Positions 28,060-64,000 of a stretch of 64,000 bases of DNA are shown here, one piece after another. The notes beneath the pieces were generated by a model. The model saw nothing but the letters and a program-made list of their open reading frames with translations. It was not told the DNA's origin and searched no databases. Source of the DNA: Nemertoderma westbladi. Lineage: Eukaryota; Animalia; Xenacoelomorpha. Position numbers and translations under genes: made by a program. Location of the stretch: NCBI GenBank assembly GCA_032718475.1, contig JAUCBJ010008594.1, forward strand, positions 77,249 through 141,248, in the 5' to 3' direction. How positions within the stretch are numbered: the stretch's first letter is position 1; each line of letters begins with the position of its first letter.

Positions 28060-28124
28060 ATGTTGTGGACAATCTTTGTTGATATTTGTCTGTTGGGGTT
28101 CGTGTTTTTTACTTCTTTGATCTT
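28060..28124 (+). CDS. CYP exon 1 (membrane anchor)
   Basis: ATG..MLWTIFVDICLLGFVFFTSLI; donor GTAAGT, phase 2, joins exon 2 in frame. Confidence 0.75.
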
Positions 28125-38278: not shown

Positions 38279-38391
38279 GTTATGAAACGACATCGAACAC
38301 TTTAAGTTGGTGCTGCTACAATTTGGCTCTGAACCCTGATATTCAAGCTGCAGTCATAAATGAATTGGACGAACTAATTGACAATGATGTT
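38279..38391 (+). CDS. CYP exon 8
   Basis: AAG acceptor; GYETTSNTLSWCCYNLALNPDIQ...; donor GTAAGT. Confidence 0.92.
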
Positions 38392-38889: not shown

Positions 38890-39113
38890 GAATTGACTTA
38901 CGAAAAGGTGTCTAAACTAGAATATCTCGATCGCGTTATATCTGAGACTCTCCGATTGTGTTCGCCTATTGTGCGATTTGAGAGAGTTTGCTCCGAGGAT
39001 TGCGTGGTTAACGGCGTGACGATACCCTAAGATACCGTTGTAGCGGGTTCCCTCTACGTATTACATAGAGATCCGGAAATCTGGCCTAATCCGGAGGAGT
39101 TTAATCCAGATAG
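38890..39113 (+). CDS. CYP exon 9 (in-frame TAA at 39028)
   Basis: ELTYEKVSKLEYLDRVISETLRL...GVTIP*DTVV...HRDPEIWPNPEEFNPDR; donor GTGGGT, phase 2. Confidence 0.9.
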
Positions 39114-39296: not shown

Positions 39297-39843
39297 CACC
39301 AGCATACCATCCTTTGAGCTTGTGCTCATCCGGTCAGAGACTTGCTGAGGACTTTCAAAGTTTACTGTCAAAATTTTGGTCTTTCTGGAGTTAATAAAGA
39401 GACCAACACTAGAAGCAGCATGTTCTAATGAGCCGAGGAGCCGTTCGGCTCCCTCTAGTGATTCTGAGAGCAAGTCATCAGCAAAGTCTAGATCAGTTGG
39501 TACTTGGCAGGATTTCCTCGACTTCTGGAGCCAGTAGGTGGAGTTATCATCATCCCATCATCATTATGATGATCTAAGGACATGCGTAGAACATAGTCAA
39601 CCACAATAATGAACAAGAATGGTGCAAGTGTGTCTCCTTGGAGGACGCCCCATAACACTTCAAATGGTTCTGTGTCACCGTCAACAGTAGACACAAATGT
39701 TGTCGAACCATCGTATACTGATCTGATTGATGCAATAATTTCATCAGGGATCCCATATAATGAAGATATGCTGAACATACGTGAGCGGGAGACTGAATCA
39801 AAGGCTTTGAAGAAGTCAACAAAGATAACAGCCAGATGCCTGT
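39297..39843 (-). mobile_element. Internal RTE LINE RT fragment in intron 9
   Basis: Matches 24465-24995 (GVLQGDTLAPFLF, FADD). Confidence 0.88.
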
Positions 39844-40420
39844 CCCCCCTCTGTCACAATCGATCACGAATTTTGTAACCCCCCCCCCCCCCCCCCCCCC
39901 CCCTTGAATGTCACGCCACAAAAAATACCCATTATAGTTAATAAAAAATGTTAAATGTTAAATTATTATGTTATTAACACTAAATGTTAATACTTCATTA
40001 ATTCAGCTGTACACAATGACTAAACAAGGAAGACACCACGCATAGACACTCCCATGGGAATGACGACATCTGAGTTTCGACATCGATCACCGGAAGTGCA
40101 CCAGGTATACGATCGCCTATTGTTCCATTTCCTGGGTCTAACTCTACCTCGTCCTTATCTACCCAACCCATTCAATGTGGTGTTCTTCATCTTTATCGCC
40201 ACTTAGAATTAACACTTCATCCCCTCGATTCGCGATTACTTGAATAGATTTCACTTTGGCTGTTGATGTTGGTGTTATGTATTTTATTTATTCACCAAAG
40301 TGCTTTTGTGACGTCACAAGTATAGCTACTCACCCCCTTCCCCCATGTCACAAATTGTCACAACATTGCAACCCCCCCCCCCCCCCTTCGACCGTGACAT
40401 CATTTATACACGAGCCCTTA
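39844..40420. mobile_element. Probable MITE/DNA transposon remnant
   Basis: Repeated TGTCAC/GTGACG motifs with poly-C tracts; right end reads AGGGCTCGTGTATAAATGATGTCACGG on the minus strand, next to TTA; left end appears truncated. Confidence 0.45.
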
Positions 40421-40428: not shown

Positions 40429-43400
40429 GCTTTGTTTGGTTAATTTTTCGTTTATGCAGGTTTCTCGCTTTGTTTGGTTAATTTTTCGTTTATACAGGTT
40501 TCTCGCTTTGTTTGGTTAATTTTTCATTTATACAGGTTTCTCGCTTTATTTTGTTAATTTTTCGTTTATACAGGTTTCTCGCTTTGTTTGGTTAATTTTT
40601 CGTTTATACAGGTTTCTCGCTTTGCTTGGTTAATTTTTCGTTTATATAGGTTTCTCGCTTTGTTTGGTTAATTTTTCGTTTATACAGGTTTCTCGCTTTG
40701 TTTTGTTAATTTTTCATTTATACAGGTTTCTCGCTTTGTTTGGTTAATTTTTCGTTTATACAGGTTTCTCGCTTTGTTTGGTTAATTTTTCGTTTATACA
40801 GGTTTCTCGCTTTGTTTTGTTAATTTTTCATTTATACAGGTTTCTCGCTTTGTTTGGTTAATTTTTCGTTTATACAGGTTTCTCGCTTTGTTTTGTTAAT
40901 TTTTCGTTTATACAGGTTTCTCGCTTTGTTTGGTAAATTTTTCGTTTATACAGGTTTCTCGCTTTGTTTTGTTAATTTTTCGTTTATACAGGTTTCTCGC
41001 TTTGTTTGGTTAATTTTTCGTTTATACAGGTTTCTCGCTTTGTTTGGTTAATTTTTCATTTATACAGGTTTCTCGCTTTATTTTGTTAATTTTTCGTTTA
41101 TACAGGTTTCTCGCTTTGTTTGGTTAATTTTTCGTTTATACAGGTTTCTCGCTTTGCTTGGTTAATTTTTCGTTTATATAGGTTTCTCGCTTTGTTTGGT
41201 TAATTTTTCGTTTATACAGGTTTCTCGCTTTGTTTTGTTAATTTTTCATTTATACAGGTTTCTCGCTTTGTTTGGTTAATTTTTCGTTTATACAGGTTTC
41301 TCGCTTTGTTTGGTTAATTTTTCGTTTATACAGGTTTCTCGCTTTGTTTTGTTAATTTTTCATTTATACAGGTTTCTCGCTTTGTTTGGTTAATTTTTCG
41401 TTTATACAGGTTTCTCGCTTTATTTGGTTAATTTTTCGTTTATGCAGGATTCTCGCTTTGTTTGGTTAATTTTTCGTTTATACAGGTTTCTCGCTTTGTT
41501 TGGTTAATTTTTCGTTTATACAGGTTTCTCGCTTTGTTTGGTAAATTTTTCGTTTATACAGGTTTCTCGCTTTGTTTTGTTAATTTTTCGTTTATACAGG
41601 TTTCTCGCTTTGTTTGGTTAATTTTGCATTTATACAGGTTTCTCACTTTGTTTGATTAATTTTTCGTTTATACAGGTTTCTCGCTTTGTTTGGTTAATTT
41701 TTCATTTATACAGGTTTCTCGCTTTGTTTGGTTAATTTTTCGTTTATACAGGGTTCTGGCTTTGTTTGGTAAATTTTTCGTTTATGCAGGATTCTCGCTT
41801 TGTTTGGTTAATTTTTCGTTTATACAGGTTTCTCGCTTTGTTTGGTTAATTTTTCATTTATACAGGTTTCTCGCTTTATTTTGTTAATTTTTCGTTTATA
41901 CAGGTTTCTCGCTTTGTTTGGTTAATTTTTCGTTTATACAGGTTTCTCGCTTTGCTTGGTTAATTTTTCGTTTATATAGGTTTCTCGCTTTGTTTGGTTA
42001 ATTTTTCGTTTATACAGGTTTCTCGCTTTGTTTTGTTAATTTTTCATTTATACAGGTTTCTCGCTTTGTTTGGTTAATTTTTCGTTTATACAGGTTTCTC
42101 GCTTTGTTTGGTTAATTTTTCGTTTATACAGGTTTCTCGCTTTGTTTTGTTAATTTTTCATTTATACAGGTTTCTCGCTTTGTTTGGTTAATTTTTCGTT
42201 TATACAGGTTTCTCGCTTTGTTTTGTTAATTTTTCGTTTATACAGGTTTCTCGCTTTGTTTGGTAAATTTTTCGTTTATACAGGTTTCTCGCTTTGTTTT
42301 GTTAATTTTTCGTTTATACAGGTTTCTCGCTTTGTTTGGTTAATTTTTCGTTTATACAGGTTTCTCGCTTTGTTTGGTTAATTTTTCGTTTATACAGGTT
42401 TCTCGCTTTGTTTGGTTAATTTTTCGTTTATACAGGTTTCTCGCTTTGTTTTGTTAATTTTTCGTTTATACAGGTTTCTCGCTTTGTTTGGTAAATTTTT
42501 CGTTTATACAGGTTTCTCGCTTTGTTTTGTTAATTTTTCGTTTATACAGGTTTCTCGCTTTGTTTGGTTAATTTTGCATTTATACAGGTTTCTCACTTTG
42601 TTTGATTAATTTTTCGTTTATACAGGTTTCTCGCTTTGTTTGGTTAATTTTTCATTTATACAGGTTTCTCGCTTTGTTTGGTTAATTTTTCGTTTATGCA
42701 GGATTCTCGCTTTGTTTGGTTAATTTTTCATTTATACAGGTTTCTCGCTTTGTTTGGTTAATTTTTCGTTTATACAGGTTTCTCGCTTTGTTTGGTAAAT
42801 TTTTCGTTTATACAGGTTTCTCGCTTTGTTTTGTTAATTTTTCGTTTATACAGGTTTCTCGCTTTGTTTGGTTAATTTTGCATTTATACAGGTTTCTCAC
42901 TTTGTTTGATTAATTTTTCGTTTATACAGGTTTCTCGCTTTGTTTGGTTAATTTTTCATTTATACAGGTTTCTCGCTTTGTTTGGTTAATTTTTCGTTTA
43001 TACAGGGTTCTGGCTTTGTTTGGGAAATTTTTCGTTTATGCAGGATTCTCGCTTTGTTTGGTTAATTTTTCGTTTATACAGGTTTCTCGCTTTGTTTGGT
43101 TAATTTTTCATTTATACAGGTTTCTCGCTTTATTTTGTTAATTTTTCGTTTATACAGGTTTCTCGCTTTGTTTGGTTAATTTTTCGTTTATACAGGTTTC
43201 TCGCTTTGCTTGGTTAATTTTTCGTTTATATAGGTTTCTCGCTTTGTTTGGTTAATTTTTCGTTTATACAGGTTTCTCGCTTTGTTTTGTTAATTTTTCA
43301 TTTATACAGGTTTCTCGCTTTGTTTGGTTAATTTTTCGTTTATACAGGTTTCTCGCTTTGTTTGGTTAATTTTTCGTTTATACAGGTTTCTCGCTTTGTT

Positions 43401-46400
43401 TTGTTAATTTTTCATTTATACAGGTTTCTCGCTTTGTTTGGTTAATTTTTCGTTTATACAGGTTTCTCGCTTTGTTTTGTTAATTTTTCGTTTATACAGG
43501 TTTCTCGCTTTGTTTGGTAAATTTTTCGTTTATACAGGTTTCTCGCTTTGTTTTGTTAATTTTTCGTTTATACAGGTTTCTCGCTTTGTTTGGTTAATTT
43601 TTCGTTTATACAGGTTTCTCGCTTTGTTTGGTTAATTTTTCGTTTATACAGGTTTCTCGCTTTGTTTGGTTAATTTTTCGTTTATACAGGTTTCTCGCTT
43701 TGTTTTGTTAATTTTTCGTTTATACAGGTTTCTCGCTTTGTTTGGTAAATTTTTCGTTTATACAGGTTTCTCGCTTTGTTTTGTTAATTTTTCGTTTATA
43801 CAGGTTTCTCGCTTTGTTTGGTTAATTTTGCATTTATACAGGTTTCTCACTTTGTTTGATTAATTTTTCGTTTATACAGGTTTCTCGCTTTGTTTGGTTA
43901 ATTTTTCATTTATACAGGTTTCTCGCTTTGTTTGGTTAATTTTTCGTTTATGCAGGATTCTCGCTTTGTTTGGTTAATTTTTCATTTATACAGGTTTCTC
44001 GCTTTGTTTGGTTAATTTTTCGTTTATGCAGGTTTCTCGCTTTGTTTGGTTAATTTTTCGTTTATACAGGTTTCTCGCTTTGTTTGGTTAATTTTTCGTT
44101 TATACAGGTTTCTCGCTTTGTTTGGTTAATTTTTCATTTATACAGGTTTCTCGCTTTATTTTGTTAATTTTTCGTTTATACAGGTTTCTCGCTTTGTTTG
44201 GTTAATTTTTCGTTTATACAGGTTTCTCGCTTTGCTTGGTTAATTTTTCGTTTATATAGGTTTCTCGCTTTGTTTGGTTAATTTTTCGTTTATACAGGTT
44301 TCTCGCTTTGTTTTGTTAATTTTTCATTTATACAGGTTTCTCGCTTTGTTTGGTTAATTTTTCGTTTATACAGGTTTCTCGCTTTGTTTGGTTAATTTTT
44401 CGTTTATACAGGTTTCTCGCTTTGTTTTGTTAATTTTTCATTTATACAGGTTTCTCGCTTTGTTTGGTTAATTTTTCGTTTATACAGGTTTCTCGCTTTA
44501 TTTGGTTAATTTTTCGTTTATGCAGGATTCTCGCTTTGTTTGGTTAATTTTTCGTTTATACAGGTTTCTCGCTTTGTTTGGTTAATTTTTCGTTTATACA
44601 GGTTTCTCGCTTTGTTTGGTAAATTTTTCGTTTATACAGGTTTCTCGCTTTGTTTTGTTAATTTTTCGTTTATACAGGTTTCTCGCTTTGTTTGGTTAAT
44701 TTTGCATTTATACAGGTTTCTCACTTTGTTTGATTAATTTTTCGTTTATACAGGTTTCTCGCTTTGTTTGGTTAATTTTTCATTTATACAGGTTTCTCGC
44801 TTTGTTTGGTTAATTTTTCGTTTATACAGGGTTCTGGCTTTGTTTGGTAAATTTTTCGTTTATGCAGGATTCTCGCTTTGTTTGGTTAATTTTTCGTTTA
44901 TACAGGTTTCTCGCTTTGTTTGGTTAATTTTTCATTTATACAGGTTTCTCGCTTTATTTTGTTAATTTTTCGTTTATACAGGTTTCTCGCTTTGTTTGGT
45001 TAATTTTTCGTTTATACAGGTTTCTCGCTTTGCTTGGTTAATTTTTCGTTTATATAGGTTTCTCGCTTTGTTTGGTTAATTTTTCGTTTATACAGGTTTC
45101 TCGCTTTGTTTTGTTAATTTTTCATTTATACAGGTTTCTCGCTTTGTTTGGTTAATTTTTCGTTTATACAGGTTTCTCGCTTTGTTTGGTTAATTTTTCG
45201 TTTATACAGGTTTCTCGCTTTGTTTTGTTAATTTTTCATTTATACAGGTTTCTCGCTTTGTTTGGTTAATTTTTCGTTTATACAGGTTTCTCGCTTTGTT
45301 TTGTTAATTTTTCGTTTATACAGGTTTCTCGCTTTGTTTGGTAAATTTTTCGTTTATACAGGTTTCTCGCTTTGTTTTGTTAATTTTTCGTTTATACAGG
45401 TTTCTCGCTTTGTTTGGTTAATTTTTCGTTTATACAGGTTTCTCGCTTTGTTTGGTTAATTTTTCGTTTATACAGGTTTCTCGCTTTGTTTGGTTAATTT
45501 TTCGTTTATACAGGTTTCTCGCTTTGTTTTGTTAATTTTTCGTTTATACAGGTTTCTCGCTTTGTTTGGTAAATTTTTCGTTTATACAGGTTTCTCGCTT
45601 TGTTTTGTTAATTTTTCGTTTATACAGGTTTCTCGCTTTGTTTGGTTAATTTTGCATTTATACAGGTTTCTCACTTTGTTTGATTAATTTTTCGTTTATA
45701 CAGGTTTCTCGCTTTGTTTGGTTAATTTTTCATTTATACAGGTTTCTCGCTTTGTTTGGTTAATTTTTCGTTTATGCAGGATTCTCGCTTTGTTTGGTTA
45801 ATTTTTCATTTATACAGGTTTCTCGCTTTGTTTGGTTAATTTTTCGTTTATACAGGTTTCTCGCTTTGTTTGGTAAATTTTTCGTTTATACAGGTTTCTC
45901 GCTTTGTTTTGTTAATTTTTCGTTTATACAGGTTTCTCGCTTTGTTTGGTTAATTTTGCATTTATACAGGTTTCTCACTTTGTTTGATTAATTTTTCGTT
46001 TATACAGGTTTCTCGCTTTGTTTGGTTAATTTTTCATTTATACAGGTTTCTCGCTTTGTTTGGTTAATTTTTCGTTTATACAGGGTTCTGGCTTTGTTTG
46101 GGAAATTTTTCGTTTATGCAGGATTCTCGCTTTGTTTGGTTAATTTTTCGTTTATACAGGTTTCTCGCTTTGTTTGGTTAATTTTTCATTTATACAGGTT
46201 TCTCGCTTTATTTTGTTAATTTTTCGTTTATACAGGTTTCTCGCTTTGTTTGGTTAATTTTTCGTTTATACAGGTTTCTCGCTTTGCTTGGTTAATTTTT
46301 CGTTTATATAGGTTTCTCGCTTTGTTTGGTTAATTTTTCGTTTATACAGGTTTCTCGCTTTGTTTTGTTAATTTTTCATTTATACAGGTTTCTCGCTTTG

Positions 46401-49400
46401 TTTGGTTAATTTTTCGTTTATACAGGTTTCTCGCTTTGTTTGGTTAATTTTTCGTTTATACAGGTTTCTCGCTTTGTTTTGTTAATTTTTCATTTATACA
46501 GGTTTCTCGCTTTGTTTGGTTAATTTTTCGTTTATACAGGTTTCTCGCTTTGTTTTGTTAATTTTTCGTTTATACAGGTTTCTCGCTTTGTTTGGTAAAT
46601 TTTTCGTTTATACAGGTTTCTCGCTTTGTTTTGTTAATTTTTCGTTTATACAGGTTTCTCGCTTTGTTTGGTTAATTTTTCGTTTATACAGGTTTCTCGC
46701 TTTGTTTGGTTAATTTTTCGTTTATACAGGTTTCTCGCTTTGTTTGGTTAATTTTTCGTTTATACAGGTTTCTCGCTTTGTTTTGTTAATTTTTCGTTTA
46801 TACAGGTTTCTCGCTTTGTTTGGTAAATTTTTCGTTTATACAGGTTTCTCGCTTTGTTTTGTTAATTTTTCGTTTATACAGGTTTCTCGCTTTGTTTGGT
46901 TAATTTTGCATTTATACAGGTTTCTCACTTTGTTTGATTAATTTTTCGTTTATACAGGTTTCTCGCTTTGTTTGGTTAATTTTTCATTTATACAGGTTTC
47001 TCGCTTTGTTTGGTTAATTTTTCGTTTATGCAGGATTCTCGCTTTGTTTGGTTAATTTTTCATTTATACAGGTTTCTCGCTTTGTTTGGTTAATTTTTCG
47101 TTTATGCAGGATTCTCGCTTTGTTTGGTTAATTTTTCGTTTATACAGGTTTCTCGCTTTGTTTGGTTAATTTTTCGTTTATACAGGTTTCTCGCTTTGTT
47201 TGGTAAATTTTTCGTTTATACAGGTTTTTCGCTTTGTTTTGTTAATTTTTCGTTTATACAGGTTTCTCGCTTTGTTTGGTTAATTTTGCATTTATACAGG
47301 TTTCTCACTTTGTTTGATTAATTTTTCGTTTATACAGGTTTCTCGCTTTGTTTGGTTAATTTTTCATTTATACAGGTTTCTCGCTTTGTTTGGTTAATTT
47401 TTCGTTTATACAGGGTTCTGGCTTTGTTTGGTAAATTTTTCGTTTATGCAGGATTCTCGCTTTGTTTGGTTAATTTTTCGTTTATACAGGTTTCTCGCTT
47501 TGTTTGGTTAATTTTTCGTTTATACAGGTTTCTCGCTTTGTTTGGTTAATTTTTCGTTTATGCAGGATTCTCGCTTTGTTTGGTTAATTTTTCATTTATA
47601 CAGGTTTCTCGCTTTGTTTGGTTAATTTTTCGTTTATACAGGGTTCTGGCTTTGTTTGGTTAATTTTTCGTTTATGCAGGATTCTCGCTTTGTTTGGTTA
47701 ATTTTTCGTTTATACAGGGTTCTCGCTTTGTTTGGTTAATTTTTCATTTATACAGGTTTCTCGCTTTGTTTGGTTAATTTTACGTTTATACAGGGTTCTG
47801 GCTTTGTTTGGTTAATTTTTCGTTTATGCAGGATTCTGGCTTTGTTTGGTTAATTTTTCGTTTATGCAGGATTCTCGCTTTGTTTGGTTAATTTTTCATT
47901 TATACAGGTTTCTCGCTTTGTTTGGTTAATTTTTCGTTTATACAGGTTTCTCGCTTTATTTCGTTAATTTTTCGTTTATACAGGTTTCTCGCTTTGTTTG
48001 GTTAATTTTGCATTTATACAGGTTTCTCACTTTGTTTGATTAATTTTTCGTTTATACAGGTTTCTCGCTTTGTTTGGTTAATTTTTCATTTATACAGGTT
48101 TCTCGCTTTGTTTGGTTAATTTTTCGTTTATACAGGGTTCTGGCTTTGTTTGGTAAATTTTTCGTTTATGCAGGATTCTCGCTTTGTTTGGTTAATTTTT
48201 CGTTTATACAGGTTTCTCGCTTTGTTTGGTTAATTTTTCATTTATACAGGTTTCTCGCTTTATTTTGTTAATTTTTCGTTTATACAGGTTTCTCGCTTTG
48301 TTTGGTTAATTTTTCGTTTATACAGGTTTCTCGCTTTGCTTGGTTAATTTTTCGTTTATATAGGTTTCTCGCTTTGTTTGGTTAATTTTTCGTTTATACA
48401 GGTTTCTCGCTTTGTTTTGTTAATTTTTCATTTATACAGGTTTCTCGCTTTGTTTGGTTAATTTTTCGTTTATACAGGTTTCTCGCTTTGTTTGGTTAAT
48501 TTTTCGTTTATACAGGTTTCTCGCTTTGTTTTGTTAATTTTTCATTTATACAGGTTTCTCGCTTTGTTTGGTTAATTTTTCGTTTATACAGGTTTCTCGC
48601 TTTGTTTTGTTAATTTTTCGTTTATACAGGTTTCTCGCTTTGTTTGGTAAATTTTTCGTTTATACAGGTTTCTCGCTTTGTTTTGTTAATTTTTCGTTTA
48701 TACAGGTTTCTCGCTTTGTTTGGTTAATTTTTCGTTTATACAGGTTTCTCGCTTTGTTTGGTTAATTTTTCGTTTATACAGGTTTCTCGCTTTGTTTGGT
48801 TAATTTTTCGTTTATACAGGTTTCTCGCTTTGTTTTGTTAATTTTTCGTTTATACAGGTTTCTCGCTTTGTTTGGTAAATTTTTCGTTTATACAGGTTTC
48901 TCGCTTTGTTTTGTTAATTTTTCGTTTATACAGGTTTCTCGCTTTGTTTGGTTAATTTTGCATTTATACAGGTTTCTCACTTTGTTTGATTAATTTTTCG
49001 TTTATACAGGTTTCTCGCTTTGTTTGGTTAATTTTTCATTTATACAGGTTTCTCGCTTTGTTTGGTTAATTTTTCGTTTATGCAGGATTCTCGCTTTGTT
49101 TGGTTAATTTTTCATTTATACAGGTTTCTCGCTTTGTTTGGTTAATTTTTCGTTTATACAGGTTTCTCGCTTTGTTTGGTAAATTTTTCGTTTATACAGG
49201 TTTCTCGCTTTGTTTTGTTAATTTTTCGTTTATACAGGTTTCTCGCTTTGTTTGGTTAATTTTGCATTTATACAGGTTTCTCACTTTGTTTGATTAATTT
49301 TTCGTTTATACAGGTTTCTCGCTTTGTTTGGTTAATTTTTCATTTATACAGGTTTCTCGCTTTGTTTGGTTAATTTTTCGTTTATACAGGGTTCTGGCTT

Positions 49401-52400
49401 TGTTTGGGAAATTTTTCGTTTATGCAGGATTCTCGCTTTGTTTGGTTAATTTTTCGTTTATACAGGTTTCTCGCTTTGTTTGGTTAATTTTTCATTTATA
49501 CAGGTTTCTCGCTTTATTTTGTTAATTTTTCGTTTATACAGGTTTCTCGCTTTGTTTGGTTAATTTTTCGTTTATACAGGTTTCTCGCTTTGCTTGGTTA
49601 ATTTTTCGTTTATATAGGTTTCTCGCTTTGTTTGGTTAATTTTTCGTTTATACAGGTTTCTCGCTTTGTTTTGTTAATTTTTCATTTATACAGGTTTCTC
49701 GCTTTGTTTGGTTAATTTTTCGTTTATACAGGTTTCTCGCTTTGTTTGGTTAATTTTTCGTTTATACAGGTTTCTCGCTTTGTTTTGTTAATTTTTCATT
49801 TATACAGGTTTCTCGCTTTGTTTGGTTAATTTTTCGTTTATACAGGTTTCTCGCTTTGTTTTGTTAATTTTTCGTTTATACAGGTTTCTCGCTTTGTTTG
49901 GTAAATTTTTCGTTTATACAGGTTTCTCGCTTTGTTTTGTTAATTTTTCGTTTATACAGGTTTCTCGCTTTGTTTGGTTAATTTTTCGTTTATACAGGTT
50001 TCTCGCTTTGTTTGGTTAATTTTTCGTTTATACAGGTTTCTCGCTTTGTTTGGTTAATTTTTCGTTTATACAGGTTTCTCGCTTTGTTTTGTTAATTTTT
50101 CGTTTATACAGGTTTCTCGCTTTGTTTGGTAAATTTTTCGTTTATACAGGTTTCTCGCTTTGTTTTGTTAATTTTTCGTTTATACAGGTTTCTCGCTTTG
50201 TTTGGTTAATTTTGCATTTATACAGGTTTCTCACTTTGTTTGATTAATTTTTCGTTTATACAGGTTTCTCGCTTTGTTTGGTTAATTTTTCATTTATACA
50301 GGTTTCTCGCTTTGTTTGGTTAATTTTTCGTTTATGCAGGATTCTCGCTTTGTTTGGTTAATTTTTCATTTATACAGGTTTCTCGCTTTGTTTGGTTAAT
50401 TTTTCGTTTATGCAGGATTCTCGCTTTGTTTGGTTAATTTTTCGTTTATACAGGTTTCTCGCTTTGTTTGGTTAATTTTTCGTTTATACAGGTTTCTCGC
50501 TTTGTTTGGTAAATTTTTCGTTTATACAGGTTTTTCGCTTTGTTTTGTTAATTTTTCGTTTATACAGGTTTCTCGCTTTGTTTGGTTAATTTTGCATTTA
50601 TACAGGTTTCTCACTTTGTTTGATTAATTTTTCGTTTATACAGGTTTCTCGCTTTGTTTGGTTAATTTTTCATTTATACAGGTTTCTCGCTTTGTTTGGT
50701 TAATTTTTCGTTTATACAGGGTTCTGGCTTTGTTTGGTAAATTTTTCGTTTATGCAGGATTCTCGCTTTGTTTGGTTAATTTTTCGTTTATACAGGTTTC
50801 TCGCTTTGTTTGGTTAATTTTTCGTTTATACAGGTTTCTCGCTTTGTTTGGTTAATTTTTCGTTTATGCAGGATTCTCGCTTTGTTTGGTTAATTTTTCA
50901 TTTATACAGGTTTCTCGCTTTGTTTGGTTAATTTTTCGTTTATACAGGGTTCTGGCTTTGTTTGGTTAATTTTTCGTTTATGCAGGATTCTCGCTTTGTT
51001 TGGTTAATTTTTCGTTTATACAGGGTTCTCGCTTTGTTTGGTTAATTTTTCATTTATACAGGTTTCTCGCTTTGTTTGGTTAATTTTACGTTTATACAGG
51101 GTTCTGGCTTTGTTTGGTTAATTTTTCGTTTATGCAGGATTCTGGCTTTGTTTGGTTAATTTTTCGTTTATGCAGGATTCTCGCTTTGTTTGGTTAATTT
51201 TTCATTTATACAGGTTTCTCGCTTTGTTTGGTTAATTTTTCGTTTATACAGGTTTCTCGCTTTATTTCGTTAATTTTTCGTTTATACAGGGTTCTGGCTT
51301 TGTTTGGTTAATTTTTCGTTTATATAGGTTTCTCGCTTTGTTTGGTTAATTTTTCGTTTATATAGGTTTCTCGCTTTGCTTGGTTAATTTTTCGTTTATA
51401 TAGGTTTCTCGCTTTGTTTGGTTAATTTTTCGTTTATACAGGTTTCTCGCTTTGTTTTGTTAATTTTTCATTTATACAGGTTTCTCGCTTTGTTTGGTTA
51501 ATTTTTCGTTTATACAGGTTTCTCGCTTTGTTTGGTTAATTTTTCGTTTATACAGGTTTCTCGCTTTGTTTGGTTAATTTTTCGTTTATACAGGTTTCTC
51601 GCTTTGTTTTGTTAATTTTTCGTTTATACAGGTTTCTCGCTTTGTTTGGTAAATTTTTCGTTTATACAGGTTTCTCGCTTTGTTTTGTTAATTTTTCGTT
51701 TATACAGGTTTCTCGCTTTGTTTGGTTAATTTTGCATTTATACAGGTTTCTCACTTTTTTGATTAATTTTTCGTTTATACAGGTTTCTCGCTTTGTTTGG
51801 TTAATTTTTCATTTATACAGGTTTCTCGCTTTGTTTGGTAAATTTTTCGTTTATGCAGGATTCTCGCTTTGTTTGGTTAATTTTTCATTTATACAGGTTT
51901 CTCGCTTTGTTTGGTTAATTTTTCGTTTATGCAGGATTCTCGCTTTGTTTGGTTAATTTTTCGTTTATACAGGTTTCTCGCTTTGTTTGGTTAATTTTTC
52001 GTTTATACAGGTTTCTCGCTTTGTTTGGTAAATTTTTCGTTTATACAGGTTTCTCGCTTTGTTTTGTTAATTTTTCGTTTATACAGGTTTCTCGCTTTGT
52101 TTGGTTAATTTTGCATTTATACAGGTTTCTCGCTTTGTTTTGTTAATTTTTCGTTTATACAGGTTTCTCGCTTTGTTTGGTTAATTTTTCGTTTATACAG
52201 GTTTCTCGCTTTGTTTGGTTAATTTTTCGTTTATACAGGTTTCTCGCTTTGTTTGGTTAATTTTTCGTTTATACAGGTTTCTCGCTTTGTTTTGTTAATT
52301 TTTCGTTTATACAGGTTTCTCGCTTTGTTTGGTAAATTTTTCGTTTATACAGGTTTCTCGCTTTGTTTTGTTAATTTTTCGTTTATACAGGTTTCTCGCT

Positions 52401-55400
52401 TTGTTTGGTTAATTTTGCATTTATACAGGTTTCTCACTTTGTTTGATTAATTTTTCGTTTATACAGGTTTCTCGCTTTGTTTGGTTAATTTTTCATTTAT
52501 ACAGGTTTCTCGCTTTGTTTGGTTAATTTTTCGTTTATGCAGGATTCTCGCTTTGTTTGGTTAATTTTTCATTTATACAGGTTTCTCGCTTTGTTTGGTT
52601 AATTTTTCGTTTATGCAGGATTCTCGCTTTGTTTGGTTAATTTTTCGTTTATACAGGTTTCTCGCTTTGTTTGGTTAATTTTTCGTTTATACAGGTTTCT
52701 CGCTTTGTTTGGTAAATTTTTCGTTTATACAGGTTTTTCGCTTTGTTTTGTTAATTTTTCGTTTATACAGGTTTCTCGCTTTGTTTGGTTAATTTTGCAT
52801 TTATACAGGTTTCTCACTTTGTTTGATTAATTTTTCGTTTATACAGGTTTCTCGCTTTGTTTGGTTAATTTTTCATTTATACAGGTTTCTCGCTTTGTTT
52901 GGTTAATTTTTCGTTTATACAGGGTTCTGGCTTTGTTTGGTAAATTTTTCGTTTATGCAGGATTCTCGCTTTGTTTGGTTAATTTTTCGTTTATACAGGT
53001 TTCTCGCTTTGTTTGGTTAATTTTTCGTTTATACAGGTTTCTCGCTTTGTTTGGTTAATTTTTCGTTTATGCAGGATTCTCGCTTTGTTTGGTTAATTTT
53101 TCATTTATACAGGTTTCTCGCTTTGTTTGGTTAATTTTTCGTTTATACAGGGTTCTGGCTTTGTTTGGTTAATTTTTCGTTTATGCAGGATTCTCGCTTT
53201 GTTTGGTTAATTTTTCGTTTATACAGGGTTCTCGCTTTGTTTGGTTAATTTTTCATTTATACAGGTTTCTCGCTTTGTTTGGTTAATTTTACGTTTATAC
53301 AGGGTTCTGGCTTTGTTTGGTTAATTTTTCGTTTATGCAGGATTCTGGCTTTGTTTGGTTAATTTTTCGTTTATGCAGGATTCTCGCTTTGTTTGGTTAA
53401 TTTTTCATTTATACAGGTTTCTCGCTTTGTTTGGTTAATTTTTCGTTTATACAGGGTTCTCGCTTTATTTCGTTAATTTTTCGTTTATACAGGGTTCTGG
53501 CTTTGTTTGGTTAATTTTTCGTTTATATAGGTTTCTCGCTTTGTTTGGTTAATTTTTCGTTTATATAGGTTTCTCGCTTTGCTTGGTTAATTTTTCGTTT
53601 ATATAGGTTTCTCGCTTTGTTTGGTTAATTTTTCGTTTATACAGGTTTCTCGCTTTGTTTTGTTAATTTTTCATTTATACAGGTTTCTCGCTTTGTTTGG
53701 TTAATTTTTCGTTTATACAGGTTTCTCGCTTTGTTTGGTTAATTTTTCGTTTATACAGGTTTCTCGCTTTGTTTGGTTAATTTTTCGTTTATACAGGTTT
53801 CTCGCTTTGTTTTGTTAATTTTTCGTTTATACAGGTTTCTCGCTTTGTTTGGTAAATTTTTCGTTTATACAGGTTTCTCGCTTTGTTTTGTTAATTTTTC
53901 GTTTATACAGGTTTCTCGCTTTGTTTGGTTAATTTTGCATTTATACAGGTTTCTCACTTTTTTGATTAATTTTTCGTTTATACAGGTTTCTCGCTTTGTT
54001 TGGTTAATTTTTCATTTATACAGGTTTCTCGCTTTGTTTGGTAAATTTTTCGTTTATGCAGGATTCTCGCTTTGTTTGGTTAATTTTTCATTTATACAGG
54101 TTTCTCGCTTTGTTTGGTTAATTTTTCGTTTATGCAGGATTCTCGCTTTGTTTGGTTAATTTTTCGTTTATACAGGTTTCTCGCTTTGTTTGGTTAATTT
54201 TTCGTTTATACAGGTTTCTCGCTTTGTTTGGTAAATTTTTCGTTTATACAGGTTTCTCGCTTTGTTTTGTTAATTTTTCGTTTATACAGGTTTCTCGCTT
54301 TGTTTGGTTAATTTTGCATTTATACAGGTTTCTCACTTTGTTTGATTAATTTTTCGTTTATACAGGTTTCTCGCTTTGTTTGGTTAATTTTTCATTTATA
54401 CAGGTTTCTCGCTTTGTTTGGTTAATTTTTCGTTTATACAGGGTTCTGGCTTTGTTTGGTAAATTTTTCGTTTATGCAGGATTCTCGCTTTGTTTGGTTA
54501 ATTTTTCGTTTATACAGGTTTCTCGCTTTGTTTGGTTAATTTTTCGTTTATACAGGTTTCTCGCTTTGTTTGGTTAATTTTTCGTTTATGCAGGATTCTC
54601 GCTTTGTTTGGTTAATTTTTCATTTATACAGGTTTCTCGCTTTGTTTGGTTAATTTTTCGTTTATACAGGGTTCTGGCTTTGTTTGGTTAATTTTTCGTT
54701 TATGCAGGATTCTCGCTTTGTTTGGTTAATTTTTCGTTTATACAGGGTTCTCGCTTTGTTTGGTTAATTTTTCATTTATACAGGTTTCTAGCTTTGTTTG
54801 GTTAATTTTACGTTTATACAGGGTTCTGGCTTTGTTTGGTTAATTTTTCGTTTATGCAGGATTCTGGCTTTGTTTGGTTAATTTTTCGTTTATGCAGGAT
54901 TCTCGCTTTGTTTGGTTAATTTTTCATTTATACAGGTTTCTCGCTTTGTTTGGTTAATTTTTCGTTTATACAGGGTTCTGGCTTTGTTTGGTTAATTTTT
55001 CGTTTATGTAGGATTCTCGCTTTGTTTGGTTAATTTTTCATTTATACAGGTTTCTCGCTTTGTTTGGTTAATTTTACGTTTATACAGGGTTCTGGCTTTG
55101 TTTGGTTAATTTTTCGTTTATGCAGGATTCTCGCTTTGTTTGGTTAATTTTTCGTTTATGCAGGATTCTCGCTTTGTTTGGTTAATTTTTCGTTTATGCA
55201 GGATTCTCGCTTTTGTTTGGTTAATTTTTCGTTTATACAGGTTTCTCGCTTTGTTTGGTTAATTTTTCGTTTATACAGATTTCTCGCTTTGTTTGGTTAA
55301 TTTTTCGTTTATACAGATTTCTCGCTTTGTTTGGTTAATTTTGCATTTATACAGGTTTCTCGCTTTGTTTGGTTAATTTTTCGTTTATACAGGGTTCTGG

Positions 55401-58400
55401 CTTTGTTAGGTTAATTTTTCGTTTATGCAGGATTCTCGCTTTGTTTGGTTAATTTTTCGTTTATACAGGGTTCTCGCTTTGTTTGGTTAATTTTTCATTT
55501 ATACAGGTTTCTCGCTTTGTTTGGTTAATTTTACGTTTATACAGGTTTCTGGCTTTGTTTGGTTAATTTTTCGTTTATGCAGGATTCTGGCTTTGTTTGG
55601 TTAATTTTTCGTTTATGCAGGATTCTCGCTTTGTTTGGTTAATTTTTCGTTTATATAGGGTTCTGGCTTTGTTTGGTTAATTTTTCGTTTATACAGGGTT
55701 CTGGCTTTGTTTGGTTAATTTTTCGTTTATGCAGGATTCTCGCTTTGTTTGGTTAATTTTTCATTTATACAGGTTTCTCGCTTTGTTTGGTTAATTTTTC
55801 GTTTATACAGGGTTCTGACTTTGTTTGGTTAATTTTTCGTTTATGCAGGTTTCTCGCTTTGTTTGGTTAATTTTTCGTTTATACAGGGTTCTCGCTTTGT
55901 TTGGTAAATTTTTCATTTATACAGGATTCTCGCTTTGTTTGGTTAATTTTTCGTTTATACAGGTTTCTCGCTTTGTTTGGTTAATTTTTCGTTTATACAG
56001 GATTCTCGCTTTGTTTGGTTAATTTTTCGTTTATGCAGGATTCTCGCTTTGTTTGGTTAATTTTTCGTTTATATAGGGTTCTGGCTTTGTTTGGTTAATT
56101 TTTCCTTTAAGCAGGGTTCTCGCTTTGTTTGGGTAATTTTTCGTTTATACAGGTTTCTCGCTTTGTTTGGTTAATTTTTCGTTTATGCAGGATTCTCGCT
56201 TTGTTTGGTTAATTTTTCGTTTATACAGGTTTCTCGCTTTGTTTGGTTAATTTTTCATTTAGACAGGTTTCTCGCTTTGTTTGGTTAATTTTTCGTTTAT
56301 GCAGGATTCTCGCTTTGTTTGGTTAATTTTTCGTATATGCAGGATTCTCGCTTTGTTTGGTTAATTTTTCGTTTATACAGGTTTCTCGCTTTGGTTGGTT
56401 AATTTTTCGTTTATACAGGTTTCTCGCTTTGTTTGGTTAATTTTTCGTTTATGCAGGATTCTCGCTTTGTTTGGTTAATTTTTCATTTATACAGGTTTCT
56501 CGCTTTGTTTGGTTAATTTTTCGTTTATACAGGGTTCTGGCTTTGTTTGGTTAATTTTTCGTTTATGCAGGATTCTCGCTTTGTTTGGTTAATTTTACGT
56601 TTATGCAGGATTCTCGCTTTGTTTGGTTAATTTTTCGTTTATACAGGTTTCTCGCTTTGTTTGGTTAATTTTTCGTTTATACAGGTTTCTCGCTTTGTTT
56701 GGTTAATTTTTCGTTTATGCAGGATTCTCGCTTTGTTTGGTTAATTTTTCATTTATACAGGTTTCTCGCTTTGTTTGGTTAATTTTTCGTTTATACAGGG
56801 TTCTGGCTTTGTTTGGTTAATTTTTCGTTTATGCAGGATTCTCGCTTTGTTTGGTTAATTTTTCGTTTATACAGGATTCTTGCTTTGTTTGGTTAATTTT
56901 TCGTTTATACAGGATTCTCGCTTTGTTTGGTTAATTTTTCGTTTATACAGGTTTCTCGCTTTGTTTGGTTAATTTTTCATTTATACAGGTTTATCGCTTT
57001 GTTTGGTTAATTTTTCGTTTATGCAGGATTCGCGCTTTGTTTGGTTAATTTTTCATTTATACAGGTTTCTCGCTTTGTTTGGTTAATTTTTCGTTTATGC
57101 AGGATTCTCGCTTTGTTTGGTTAATTTTTCGTTTATACAGGATTCTCGCTTTGTTTGGTGAATTTTTCGTTTATACAGGATTCTCGCTTTGTTTGGTTAA
57201 TTTTTCGTTTATACAGGTTTCTCGCTTTGTTTGGTTAATTTTTCATTTATACAGGTTTCTCGCTTTGTTTGGTTAATTTTTCGTTTATACAGGTTTCTCG
57301 CTTTGTTTGGTTAATTTTTCATTTATACAGGTTTCTCGCTTTGTTTGGTTAATTTTTCGTTTATACAGGGTTCTCGCTTTGTTTGGTTAATTTTGCATTT
57401 ATACAGGTTTCTCGCTTTGTTTGGTTAATTTTTCGTTTATACAGAGTTCTGGCTTTGTTTGGTTAATTTTTCGTTTATGCAGGATTCTCGCTTTGTTTGG
57501 TTAATTTTTCGTTTATACAGGGTTCTCGCTTTGTTTGGTTAATTTTTCATTTATACAGGTTTCTCGCTTTGTTTGGTTAATTTTTCGTTTATACAGGTTT
57601 CTCGCTTTGTTTGGTTAATTTTTCATTTATACAGGTTTCTCGCTTTGTTTGGTTAATTGTTCGTTTATGCAGGGTTCTGGCTTTGTTTGGTTAATTTTTC
57701 GTTTATGCAGGATTCTCGCTTTGTTTGGTTAATTTTTCGTTTATACAGGATTCTCGCTTTGTTTTGATAATTTTTCGTTTATACAGGTTTCTCGCTTTGT
57801 TTGGTTAATTTTTCATTTATACAGGTTTCTCGCTTTGTTTGGTTAATTTTTCGTTTATACAGGGTTCTCGCTTTGTTTGGTTAATTTTGCATTTATACAG
57901 GTTTCTCGCTTTGTTTGGTTAATTTTTCGTTTATACAGGATTCTCGCATTGTTTGGTTAATTTTTCGTTTATACAGGTTTCTCGCTTTGTTTGGTTAATT
58001 TTTCATTTATACAGGTTTCTCGCTTTGTTTGGTTAATTTTTCGTTTATACAGGGTTCTCGCTTTGTTTGGTTAATTTTGCATTTATACAGGTTTCTCGCT
58101 TTGTTTGGTTAATTTTTCGTTTATACAGGATTCTCGCATTGTTTGGTTAATTTTTCGTTTATACAGGTTTCTCGCTTTGTTTGGTTAATTTTTCATTTAT
58201 ACAGGTTTCTCGCTTTGTTTGGTTAATTTTTCGTTTATACAGGGTTCTGGCTTTGTTTGTCTAATTTTTCGTTTATACAGGATTCTCGCTTTGTTTGGTT
58301 AATTTTTCGTTTATACAGGATTCTCGCTTTGTTTGGTTAATTTTTCGTTTATACGGGTTTCTCGCTTTGTTTGGTTAATTTTTCCTTCATACAGGTTTCT

Positions 58401-61398
58401 CGCTTTGTTTGGTTAATTTTTCATTTATACAGGTTTCTCGCTTTGTTTGGTTAATTTTTCGTTTATACAGGATTCTCGCTTTGTTTTGATAATTTTTCGT
58501 TTATACAGGTTTCTCGCTTTGTTTGGTTAATTTTTCATTTATACAGGTTTCTCGCTATGTTTGGTTAATTTTTCGTTTATACAGGATTCTCGCATTGTTT
58601 GGTTAATTTTTCGTTTATACAGGTTTCTCGCTTTGTTTGGTTAATTTTTCATTTATACAGGATTCTCGCTGTGTTTGGTTAATTTTTCGTTTATACAGGA
58701 TTCTCGCTTTGTTTGGTTAATTTTTCGTTTATACAGGATTCTCGCTTTGTTTGGTTAATTTTTCGTTTATACAGGATTCTCGCTTTGTTTGGTTAATTTT
58801 TCGTTTATACGGGTTTCTCGCTTTGTTTGGTTAATTTTTCCTTCATACAGGTTTCTCGCTTTGTTTGGTTAATTTTTCATTTATACAGGTTTCTCGCTTT
58901 GTTTTGATAATTTTTCGTTTATACAGGTTTCTCGCTTTGTTTGGTTAATTTTTCATTTATACAGGATTCTCGCTTTGTTTGGTTAATTTTTCGTTTATAC
59001 AGGTTTCTCGCTTTGTTTGGTTAATTTTTCATTTATACAGGTTTCTCGCTTTGTTTGGTTAATTTTTCGTTTATACAGGATTCTCGCTTTGTTTGGTTAA
59101 TTTTTCGTTTATACGGGTTTCTCGCTTTGTTTGGTTAATTTTTCCTTCATACAGGTTTCTCGCTTTGTTTGGTTAATTTTTCATTTATACAGGTTTCTCG
59201 CTTTGTTTGGTTAATTTTTCGTTTATACAGGGTTCTGGCTTTGTTTGTCTAATTTTTCGTTTATACAGGCACAGGGTTCTGGCTTTGTTTGTCTAATTTT
59301 TCGTTTATACAGGATTCTCGCTTTGTTTGGTTAATTTTTCGTTTATACAGGATTCTCGCTTTGTTTGGTTAATTTTTCGTTTATACGGGTTTCTCGCTTT
59401 GTTTGGTTAATTTTTCCTTCATACAGGTTTCTCGCTTTGTTTGGTTAATTTTTCATTTATACAGGTTTCTCGCTTTGTTTGGTTAATTTTTCGTTTATAC
59501 AGGATTCTCGCTTTGTTTTGATAATTTTTCGTTTATACAGGTTTCTCGCTTTGTTTGGTTAATTTTTCATTTATACAGGTTTCTCGCTATGTTTGGTTAA
59601 TTTTTCGTTTATACAGGATTCTCGCATTGTTTGGTTAATTTTTCGTTTATACAGGTTTCTCGCTTTGTTTGGTTAATTTTTCATTTATACAGGATTCTCG
59701 CTGTGTTTGGTTAATTTTTCGTTTATACAGGATTCTCGTTTTGTTTGGTTAATTTTTCGTTTATACAGGATTCTCGCTTTGTTTGGTTAATTTTTCGTTT
59801 ATACAGGATTCTCGCTTTGTTTGGTTAATTTTTCGTTTATACGGGTTTCTCGCTTTGTTTGGTTAATTTTTCCTTCATACAGGTTTCTCGCTTTGTTTGG
59901 TTAATTTTTCATTTATACAGGTTTCTCGCTTTGTTTTGATAATTTTTCGTTTATACAGGTTTCTCGCTTTGTTTGGTTAATTTTTCATTTATACAGGATT
60001 CTCGCTTTGTTTGGTTAATTTTTCGTTTATACAGGTTTCTCGCTTTGTTTGGTTAATTTTTCATTTATACAGGTTTCTCGCTTTGTTTGGTTAATTTTTC
60101 GTTTATACAGGGTTCTGGCTTTGTTTGTCTAATTTTTCGTTTATGCAGGATTCTCGCTTTGTTTGGTTAATTTTTCGTTTATACAGGATTCTCGCTTTGT
60201 TTGGTTAATTTTTCGTTTATACAGGATTCTCGCTTTGTTTGGTTAATTTTTCGTTTATATAGGTTTCTCGCTTTGTTTGGTTAATTTTTCATTTATACAG
60301 GTTTCTCGCTTTGTTTGGTTAATTTTTCATTTATACAGGTTTCTCGCTTTGCTTGGTTAATTTTTCGTTTATACAGGTTTCTCGCTTTGTTTGGTTAATT
60401 TTTCGTTTATACAGGTTTCTCGCTTTATTTCGTTAATTTTTCGTTTATACAGGGTTCTGGCTTTGTTTGTCTAATTTTTCGTTTATGCAGGATTCTCGCT
60501 TTGTTTGGTTAATTTTTCGTTTATGCAGGATTCTCGCTTTGTTTGGTTAATTTTTCGTTTATACAGGTTTCTCGCTTTATTTCGTTAATTTTTCGTTTAT
60601 ACAGGGTTCTGGCTTTGTTTGTCTAATTTTTCGTTTATGCAGGATTCTCGCTTTGTTTGGTTAATTTTTCGTTTATACAGGATTCTCGCTTTGTTTGGTT
60701 AATTTTTCGTTTATACAGGATTCTCGCTTTGTTTGGTTAATTTTTCGTTTATATAGGTTTCTCGCTTTGTTTGGTTAATTTTTCATTTATACAGGTTTCT
60801 CGCTTTGTTTGGTTAATTTTTCATTTATACAGGTTTCTCGCTTTGTTTGGTTAATTTTTCGTTTATACAGGTTTCTCGCTTTGTTTGGTTAATTTTTCGT
60901 TTATACAGGTTTCTCGCTTTGTTTGGTTAATTTTTCGTTTATACAGGATTCTCGCTTTGTTTGGTTAATTTTTCGTTTATACAGGTTTCTCGCTTTATTT
61001 CGTTAATTTTTCGTTTATACAGGATTCTCGCTTTGTTTGGTTAATTTTTCGTTTATACAGGTTTCTCGCTTTATTTCGTTTATACAGGTTTCTCGCTTTG
61101 TTTGGTTAATTTTTCGTTTATACAGGATTCTCGCTTTGTTTGGTTAATTTTTCGTTTATACAGGTTTCTCGCTTTATTTCGTTAATTTTTCGTTTATACA
61201 GGTTTCTCGCTTTGTTTGGTTAATTTTTCGTTTATACAGGATTCTCGCTTTGTTTGGTTAATTTTTCGTTTATATAGGTTTCTCGCTTTGTTTGGTTAAT
61301 TTTTCATTTATACAGGTTTCTCGCTTTATTTCGTTAATTTTTCGTTTATACAGGTTTCTCGCTTTATTTCGTTAATTTTTCGTTTATACAGGTTTCTC
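40429..61398 (+). repeat. 38-bp intronic satellite, about 550 copies, derived from the exon 10 splice acceptor
   Basis: Unit GCTTTGTTTGGTTAATTTTTCGTTTATACAG|GTTTCTC; the last unit runs directly into exon 10. Confidence 0.98.
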
Positions 61399-61538
61399 CC
61401 CGAACAAAAGAAGAATCGCAACCCCTATGCTTACGCTCCTTTTGGTCTCGGGCCCAGAAGTTGCCTAGCAACCAGATTTGCATTGCTGGAAGTAAAGGTG
61501 GCTCTCGTGAGACTCCTTCAAAACTATAACATTCAGAG
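61392..61538 (+). CDS. CYP exon 10 (heme-binding cysteine)
   Basis: RFLPEQKKNRNPYAYAPFGLGPRSCLATRFALLEVKVALVRLLQNYNIQR; phase matches exon 9; donor GTAAGA. Confidence 0.95.
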
Positions 61539-64000
61539 GTAAGATGAGCTCTATAGTTAAACTCTATGTTAATAACATTCAGAGGTAAGATGAGCTCTGG
61601 TTAAACTCTATGTTAATAACATTCAGAGGTACGATGAGCTCTTGTTAAACTCTATGTTAATAACATTCAGAGGTAAGATGAGCTCTAGTTAAACTCTATG
61701 TTAATAACATTCAGAGGTAAGATGAGCTCTAGTTAAACTCTATGTTAATAACATTCAGAGGTACGATGAGCTCTTGTTAAACTCTATGTTAATAACATTC
61801 AGAGGTAAGATGAGCTCTAGTTAAACTCCATGTTAATAACATCCAGAGGTACGATGAGCTCTAGTTAAACTCTATGTTAATAACATTCAGAGGTACGATG
61901 AGCTCTTGTTAAACTCTATGTTAATAACATTCAGAGGTAAGATGAGCTCTAGTTAAACTCTATGTTAATAACATTCAGAGGTAAGATGAGCTCTAGTTAA
62001 ACTCTATGTTAATAACATTCAGAGGTAAGATGAGCTCTAGTTAAACTCTATGTTAATAACATTCAGAGGTAAGATGAGCTCTAGTTAAACTCTATGTTAA
62101 TAACATTCAGAGGTAAGATGAGCTCTAGTTAAACTCTATGTTAATAACATTCAGAGGTAAGATGAGCTCTAGTTAAACTCTATGTTAATAACATTCGGAG
62201 GTAAGATGAGCTCTAGTTAAACTTTATGTTAATAACATTCAGACGTAAGATGAGCTCTAGTTAAACTCTATGTTAATAACATTCAGAGGTAAGATGAGCT
62301 CTAGTTAAACTCTATGTTAATAACATTCAGAGGTAAGATGAGCTCTAGTTAAACTCTATGTTACTAACATTCAGAGGTAAGATGAGCTCTAGTTAAACTT
62401 TATGTTAATAACCTTCAGACGTAAGATGAGCTCTAGTTAAACTCTATGTTAATAACATTCAGACGTAAGATGAGCTCTAGTTAAACTCTATGTTAATAAC
62501 ATTCAGAGGTAAGATGAGCTCTAGTTAAACTCTATGTTAATAACATTCAGAGGTAAGATGAGCTCTAGTTAAACTCTATGTTACTAACATTCAGAGGTAA
62601 GATGAGCTCTAGTTAAACTTTATGTTAATAACCTTCAGACGTAAGATGAGCTCTAGTTAAACTCTATGTTAATAACATTCAGAGGTAAGATGAGCTCTAG
62701 TTAAACTCTATGTTAATAACATTCAGAGGTAAGATGAGCTCTAGTTAAACTTTATGTTAATAACATTCAGAGGTAAGATGAGCTCTAGTTAAACTCTATG
62801 TTAATAACATTCAGAGGTAAGATGAGCTCTAGTTAAACTCCATGTTAATAACATTCATAGGTAAGATGAGCTCTAGTTAAACTCCATACTGATAACATTC
62901 AGAGGTAAGATGAGCTCTAGTTAAACTCCATGTTAATAACATTCATAGGTAAGATGAGCTCTAGTTCAACTCCATACTGATAACATTCAGAGGTAAGATG
63001 AGCTCTAGTTAAACTCCATGTTAATAACATTCAGAGGTAAGATGAGCTCTAGTTAAACTCCATACTGAGAACATTCAGAGGTAAGATGAGCTCTAGTTAA
63101 ACTCCATACTGATAACATCCCGAGGTAAGATGAGCTCTAGTTAAACTCCATACTGATAACATCCAGAGGTAAGATGAGCTCTAGTTCAACTCCATTTTAA
63201 TAACATCCAGAGGTAAGATGAGCTCTAGTTAAACTCCATACTGATAACATTCAGAGGTAAGATGAGCTCTAGTTAAACTCCATGTTAATAACATTCATAG
63301 GTAAGATGTGCTCTAGTTAAACTCCATACTGATAACATTCAGAGGTAAGATGAGCTCTAGTTAAACTCCATGTTAATAACATCCAGAGGTAAGATGAGCT
63401 CTAGTTAAACTCCATACTGATAACATTCAGAGGTAAGATGAGCTCTAGTTAAACTCCATGTTAATAACATTCATAGGTAAGATGTGCTCTAGTTAAACTC
63501 CATACTGATAACATTCAGAGGTAAGATGAGCTCTAGTTAAACTCCATGTTAATAACATTCATAGGTAAGATGTGCTCTAGTTAAACTCCATACTGATAAC
63601 ATTCAGAGGTAAGATGAGCTCTAGTTAAACTCCATGTTAATAACATTCAGAGGTAAGATGAGCTCTAGTTAAACTCCATACTGAGAACATTCAGAGGTAA
63701 GATGTGCTCTAGTTAAACTCCATACTGATAACATCCCGAGGTAAGATGAGCTCTAGTTAAACTCCATACTGATAACATCCAGAGGTAAGATGAGCTCTAG
63801 TTCAACTCCATTTTAATAACATCCAGAGGTAAGATGAGCTCTAGTTAAACTCCATACTGATAACATTCAGAGGTAAGATGAGCTCTAGTTAAACTCCATG
63901 TTAATAACATTCATAGGTAAGATGTGCTCTAGTTAAACTCCATACTGATAACATTCAGAGGTAAGATGAGCTCTAGTTAAACTCCATGTTAATAACATTC
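61526..64000 (+). repeat. 44-bp intronic satellite, at least 56 copies (runs off the window), derived from the exon 10 splice donor
   Basis: Unit ATAACATTCAGAG|GTAAGATGAGCTCTAGTTAAACTCTATGTTA; the first unit overlaps the exon end. Confidence 0.98.

Follow-up and report, generated by a model that had tools for sequence, protein, structure and literature searches.

Mirage minisatellites in the Adh3 gene were reportedly described by Canestro et al. in 2002, and the Adh3 array is said to show somatic instability. Mirages are tandem repeats that lie across exon-intron boundaries and leave splicing undisturbed (PMC3087553). Those described in amphioxus include Adh3, the globins BflGb6 and BflGb9, troponin C and PGBD5 (PMC3087553, PMC3902484), with 3-6 units in BflGb6 (PMC3087553) and 2-7 units in PGBD5, troponin C being named as another bearer in the same source (PMC3902484). 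Donor minisatellites have been described in human genes. A 37-bp VNTR in intron 7 of F7 presents 5-9 identical donors, of which the most upstream alone is used; four further human genes, IFI6 (6-16), CBS, LMNB2 and PDGF, carry 10-25 units, and in 6-16 and CBS splicing also uses the two pseudo-sites that follow (PMC1557585). In ABCA7, the unit of a 25-bp VNTR in intron 18 starts at the donor GT, and alleles of up to 9711 bp are cited (PMC5954066), which by division amounts to about 390 units, so hundreds of donor copies have precedent. The length of this VNTR tracks exon 19 skipping and lower expression, and retention of one unit through the second donor is put at about 2% (PMC5954066).

Here we describe a locus of Nemertoderma westbladi, contained in a 64,000-nt stretch of genomic DNA (the window), in which one exon of a cytochrome P450 gene is preceded by an array of copies of its own acceptor and followed by an array of copies of its own donor. 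Both arrays are splice-junction minisatellites, or mirages, and thus of a known kind, with unusual size and two-sidedness. A literature search, with most subscription papers and supplements outside its scope, found neither an exon with both edges amplified nor hundreds of acceptor copies.

Host gene and junction arrays

The gene model has ten exons, from 28060 to 61538 (Table 1), and yields a 471-codon P450 that is open but for a TAA in exon 9; the mutual joints of exons 1-8 are model joints, set by GT/AG boundaries and reading frame. Pfam family PF00067 was matched by all three exons scanned, above the curated cut-off in two of them. Exon 10, which carries the P450 haem cysteine in an FxxGxRxC haem motif, aligns with positions 388-434 of the 462 in the p450 profile (E 4e-14), and its best match in the PDB is CYP3A4 (E 2e-12), with CYP3A4, 3A5 and 3A7 making up the top 14 of 33 matches. 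The matched CYP3A chains extend about 40 residues past the exon 10 match. A homolog search with exon 5 returned 39 candidates, none significant. The host gene is a CYP3-like cytochrome P450, its placement in the CYP3 clan being taken from the best matches of one exon.

Table 1. Exons of the P450 gene and features of the two junction arrays, in window coordinates (X4, a cDNA-like sequencing run described below; a slash within a motif marks the exon-intron boundary)
Feature	Position	Strand	Remarks
Exon 1	28060-28124	+	GT/AG and reading-frame model
Exon 2	28834-28980	+	GT/AG and reading-frame model
Exon 3	32425-32521	+	GT/AG and reading-frame model
Exon 4	32858-32974	+	GT/AG and reading-frame model
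Exon 5	35098-35335	+	GT/AG and reading-frame model
Exon 6	35572-35711	+	GT/AG and reading-frame model
Exon 7	36549-36675	+	GT/AG and reading-frame model
Exon 8	38279-38391	+	GT/AG and reading-frame model; exon 8-9 joint in X4
Exon 9	38890..39113	+	In-frame TAA at 39028-39030 in window allele
Acceptor minisatellite	40429..61398	+	38-bp unit, 552 copies (TRF period 38); last unit is the used acceptor
Exon 10	61392..61538	+	147 nt, phase 2 at both ends; haem-binding FGLGPRSC motif
Donor minisatellite	61526..64000	+	44-bp unit, 56 GT sites; continues beyond window end
Real, used donor GT (GAG/GTAAGA)	61539..61540	+	X4 contig identical over 61392-61540, then new coding exon
Read-through TAA past first donor	61540..61542	+	Reading frame AGG TAA

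On the 5' side of exon 10, each acceptor unit joins the last 31 nt of intron 9 to the first 7 nt of the exon, and the array of about 21 kb takes up 94% of the 22,278-nt intron 9; the other introns of the gene measure 236-3444 nt. A YAG is retained in 544 of the 549 units parsed (three more were missed by the parsing pattern), and 15 of the 38 unit columns are invariant. From every one of the 548 upstream acceptors the reading frame runs into a stop, at codon 7 in 498 cases. Identical strings of 87, 80 and 64 units recur along the array, as compared with 4-8 units in 20 shuffles of unit order. The arrays have expanded via block duplication, and assembly error could account for part of this. Within 41029-51300, blocks of 80 and of 87 units, each about 3 kb, recur unchanged at offsets of 81 and 87 units; such higher-order blocks may reflect recent duplication or an assembly artefact, and with blocks repeated identically the exact acceptor copy number may be distorted by assembly.

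On the 3' side, a first-pass annotation of this DNA had reported at least 56 tandem donors from 61526 onwards, in agreement with the 56 GT sites parsed here and with TRF, which finds a period of 44 over 61526-64000 with 56.2 copies, 93% matches and a score of 4078. The donor unit consists of the last 13 nt of exon 10 and the first 31 nt of intron 10; successive GTs are spaced by 46 bp for the first unit and 44 bp thereafter, and all 56 units keep the GT. As the real donor is the first of these, 55 decoys lie in the window, a count to be read as at least 55 because the window end cuts the array. The unit junctions (n = 56) read GAG/GTAAGA in 42 cases, TAG/GTAAGA in 6, GAG/GTACGA in 4 and GAC/GTAAGA in 4. 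The annotation had rightly named the first as the majority form and GTACGA and AC/GTAAGA as variants, and had left out the six TAG/GTAAGA units. It had also described a shift to CTCCATACTGA units after about 62800: a change does occur there, and the distal units, of CTCC type, are not uniform, the 27 of them ending in CTCCATACTG (15), CTCCATGTTA (10) or CTCCATTTTA (2), with two endings mostly alternating. Within the arrays, variant blocks have spread locally. Invariant columns number 28 of 44, and variable positions make up 3 of the 9 in the donor signal as against 16 of the 44 in the unit as a whole.

Arrays occur at 2 of the 19 junctions of the gene that were examined, both of them on exon 10 and 127 nt apart. 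None of the other 17 junctions is amplified in the window, where a single 12-mer look-alike (within 3 kb) was seen at one of them. A third minisatellite (26703-27190; 33 bp, 14.8 copies, 97% identity) lies about 870 nt 5' of the P450 start codon and at no splice junction of the gene.

Several mobile-element sequences share the window. A BEL/Pao-type LTR retrotransposon, split into several frames, occupies roughly 7900-15800 on the forward strand and matches DUF1759, Peptidase_A17, an integrase zinc-binding domain and DUF5641. Fragments of one high-copy LINE family lie 5' of the gene (24231-25968, reverse strand, with an RVT_1 match at 24671-25303), in intron 2 (29405-30000) and in intron 9 (39301-39844, reverse strand). 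Neither of two open frames at 1087-2064 and 2358-3155 (reverse strand), 325 and 265 codons long, has a Pfam match; a 1.2-kb repeat (3808-5032 and 19129-20351, 98.8% identical) adjoins them together with related inverted stretches, and frames and repeats possibly form an unclassified mobile element.

Transcription and splice-site use

Six sequencing runs are listed for the organism, none of them recorded as RNA, and four were compared: the genomic runs X1, X2 and X3 (two samples, two studies) and X4, which is labelled 'DNA?'. X4 behaves as cDNA, because 38391 and 38890, separated in the window by a GT..AG intron, are contiguous in its contigs, and this holds for two alleles of exon 8. In another X4 contig (depth 329.6) the end of exon 9 is joined to 61392, the last acceptor of the array. 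One of 465 nt (depth 225.2) matches the window without a difference over 61392-61540 and then reads on in frame with R-C-E-K-T-V-V-P-P-A-I, a continuation that we take to resemble that of CYP3A4. The first donor is therefore used; exon 10 is internal and joined to exon 11, and the gene is transcribed. The annotation, which had suggested looking at donor usage in cDNA, was right on several points: the units of the donor array do copy the true donor, the exon concerned is internal, reading past the first donor does give AGG TAA, and use of any downstream donor would truncate the protein. Two situations that it had named as speaking against its own reading are not borne out, as spliced X4 contigs exist for a gene that might have been silent, and an exon 10 that might have been terminal runs on into exon 11. 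With that joint, AGG TAA as the true stop and the array as 3' UTR were rejected.

The splice joints found in X4 contigs involve the last acceptor and the first donor only, in one run and with the limit that contigs lose rare forms and that decoy products would be degraded. X4 cover is absent from the arrays at 61350-61385 and 61548-61590, contigs being a record of presence and not of absence. That the X4 sample carries the arrays is assumed from its identical exon sequence, this run being the cDNA-like one. In a further X4 contig, 144 nt long and with a depth of 119.6, a different sequence of 114 nt is attached to the last acceptor at 61392. The last 30 letters before this second joint do not end in AG, contain an ATG in frame with exon 10, and have no counterpart in the window at up to three mismatches; the contig may be chimeric or trans-spliced, or may begin with an alternative first exon of another allele.

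All three genomic runs contain units of both arrays, and X1 and X3 each have a 176-nt contig covering 61378-61553, that is, exon 10 with the start of both arrays. In X2, whose records are filtered, an exon 10 contig is absent and the contigs break exactly at the base of the exon 9 stop. The codon at 39028-39030, TAA in the window allele, encodes lysine in X1, X3 and X4, and the TAA either segregates as a null allele or stems from an error of assembly. The depth of array units relative to unique sequence varies widely among X1, X2 and X3, depth being no measure of copy number. With the same reservation about contig depth, a 60-nt donor-unit contig in X2, at a depth of 3467 as against 4-7 for unique contigs, hints that the donor array may reach hundreds of units.

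A paralogous exon 10 is present in all four runs, with 17 differences in 121 nt (about 86% identity; window 61390-61510 against X1-X4) and the same donor position. In all three genomic runs its junctions are free of arrays, being flanked by 136 nt of ordinary intron on the 5' side and by 530-1218 nt of unbroken contig on the 3' side. The paralog is expressed, and its intron positions are those of the array-bearing P450. Because the paralog lacks arrays at the same junctions, the arrays most simply arose after the two genes split.

Origin of the arrays and alternative readings

We consider it probable that two minisatellites have grown from the two edges of exon 10, likely as neutral sequence, and that the spliceosome takes the exon-proximal pair of sites. 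The seed would have been a short tandem duplication across each junction, arising after the paralog split, and the seeds would have expanded into the introns through slippage or unequal exchange without disturbing the coding exon. Of all the sites on offer, the closest acceptor-donor pair across the exon is the one found joined in X4, and a spliceosome that picks by such proximity would arrive at the authentic sites. Rare use of a decoy would introduce a premature stop and mostly end in nonsense-mediated decay, at small cost. The vertebrate decay rule places its limit at 50-55 nt. Under it, only the products of donor 2 would escape, because the stop at 61540-61542 precedes the junction by 42 nt for donor 2 and by 86 nt for donor 3. 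The splice signals of the arrays have been neither eliminated nor preferentially retained, and selection on them is not apparent. The arrays are most likely without function, most likely neutral and tolerated because the exon-proximal pair wins. Precedents are F7, where the most upstream donor alone is used (PMC1557585), and the mirages that leave splicing undisturbed (PMC3087553), whereas the donor-containing VNTR of ABCA7 is a case that is not neutral (PMC5954066). That the only arrays among 19 junctions share an exon hints at something other than independence (two randomly placed independent arrays would share one exon in 9 of 171 pairs, about 5%, a post hoc figure); local instability would explain the shared exon as well as function would.

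Effects on RNA that the annotation had suggested find no support here. It had proposed that each donor unit can pair TAACAT..AGAG with CTCT-ATGTTA around the GT. The predicted fold of a single unit does contain this stem, which is complete in 20 of the 56 units and no more stable than expected (z -0.21, 0.07 and -0.06 for three units against dinucleotide shuffles), and folds of five-unit multimers are likewise unexceptional (z -1.21 and 0.02 against multimers of shuffled units). Masking of the decoys by such hairpins was rejected, as their stability is that of chance, the real donor would be covered too, and real and decoy donors are alike; a check of the distal donor-unit variant for compensatory change in the hairpin found none. 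Premature polyadenylation fares no better: the 2475 bases of the donor array contain neither AATAAA nor ATTAAA, and the same holds for the acceptor array. AATAAC is not a usual polyadenylation signal; it occurs 39 times. An influence of the donor array on exon definition is unsupported by the X4 contigs found, which use the first donor only. A low-level effect may nevertheless exist, since rare forms are lost from contigs and products of mis-splicing contain premature stops.

The arrays could have arisen neutrally and still act as a modifier of the kind described for ABCA7, long alleles lowering P450 mRNA or raising exon 10 skipping through titration of U1 and U2AF or slowed splicing. Skipping of exon 10 would remove 147 nt in frame and with them the haem cysteine. 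The dependence of exon 19 skipping on VNTR length in ABCA7 (PMC5954066) makes such an effect conceivable, and the differences in array depth among X1, X2 and X3 are a weak hint of length variation, to be read with the caution that depth gives no copy number; in X4, however, the contigs found show normal joints at both edges, and we regard a modifier of this sort as unlikely.

More elaborate is the idea of a coupled system, in which a 21-kb field of 550 decoy acceptors is tolerable thanks to the donor array and the ratio between the two array lengths sets how much active P450 is made. We hold it to be quite improbable; if true, one exon would for the first time be seen to carry splice-site satellites that compensate each other. 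The compensation itself, with a U1-loaded donor array strengthening exon 10 against the 550 decoys and one array permitting or selecting for the other, seems very improbable. It accords with the confinement of both arrays to exon 10, the other 17 junctions having none, and with the retention of GT in 56 of 56 and of YAG in 544 of 549 units. In work with engineered U1, U1 bound just downstream reportedly enhances an upstream donor, and enhancement by U1 sites just downstream of the real donor would be in keeping with this. Yet signal columns are conserved no better than the others, and local instability alone could produce two arrays 127 nt apart. Nor does the comparison with F7 help, since pseudo-sites there do not compete, and the part of that study dealing with the array found no regulatory element in it (PMC1557585).

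That the gene lost its function and the arrays expanded afterwards as debris is suggested by the nonsense codon that the window allele carries in exon 9 and by the expressed paralog, which could cover the function. Against this, X1 and X3 carry array units together with the lysine codon, X4 splices two exon 8 alleles to an intact exon 9 and on to exons 10 and 11, and the remainder of the 471-codon model is open. For the species this reading is already largely refuted, and we give it little credence. Least credible of all is recursive (ratchet) splicing, by which a joint to an upstream unit would recreate AG/GT and be respliced stepwise to the last acceptor: CAG/GTTTCT occurs in 371 acceptor units because exon 10 begins with GT, but GTTTCT departs from the U1 match at +3 to +5 and this same weak site goes unused at the mature mRNA junction, the acceptor units lack the U1 match at these positions that would make an acceptor with an immediate strong donor, the six TAG/GTAAGA donor units lack a pyrimidine tract, and no relevant paper came out of a literature search that combined recursive splicing and tandem repeats.

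Returning to the preferred reading of neutral arrays and exon-proximal site choice, the locus requires that the exon 9 donor skip about 550 near-identical acceptors before joining the last one, and that exon 10 take the first of at least 56 donors. Such a choice of sites is what definition across the exon predicts, and use of the last acceptor is hard to square with a rule by which the first acceptor downstream of a donor is taken. The locus is thus an extreme natural experiment that could gauge how splice-site choice depends on decoy number and what an array costs, aided by a ready control gene in the expressed array-free P450 paralog and by probable length variation among individuals. It is also a warning for annotation, since a P450 that is expressed can look truncated when its haem exon is hidden by a 21-kb repeat.

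Comparison with known splice-junction minisatellites

Both arrays share several features by which mirages are recognised. Their units span an exon-intron boundary of the host gene, AG or GT is kept in many units (56 of 56 GT, 544 of 549 YAG), and in X4, one run in which rare forms would be invisible, the authentic sites yield regular mRNA. Variant blocks that have spread locally and the identical strings of 87, 80 and 64 units show concerted evolution and turnover of tandem units. Length polymorphism between alleles is a further mirage trait, of which the unequal array depths in X1, X2 and X3, being no copy numbers, give a weak hint.

Among the human donor arrays, F7 is close in that its first unit lies across the exon-intron junction, identical donors follow and the most upstream is used; it differs in having 5-9 units, the others of that group having up to about 25, all on the donor side only as far as that source describes them (PMC1557585). 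The extra use of pseudo-sites in 6-16 and CBS is a further difference, of a kind invisible to contigs here. ABCA7 shares a donor GT that opens every unit and alleles of kilobase length. Unlike the P450 arrays, it is amplified on the donor side only, its unit as described contains no exon sequence, and array length there has a measured effect on both splicing and disease (PMC5954066). The amphioxus mirages resemble the P450 arrays most: boundary-spanning copies at either type of boundary, a unit within 10-160 bp, AG or GT often kept, concerted evolution and normal mRNA. They differ in copy number, 2-7 as against 552 and at least 56 here, and amplification of two edges is absent from the descriptions compared, from which the original account of Adh3 might differ.
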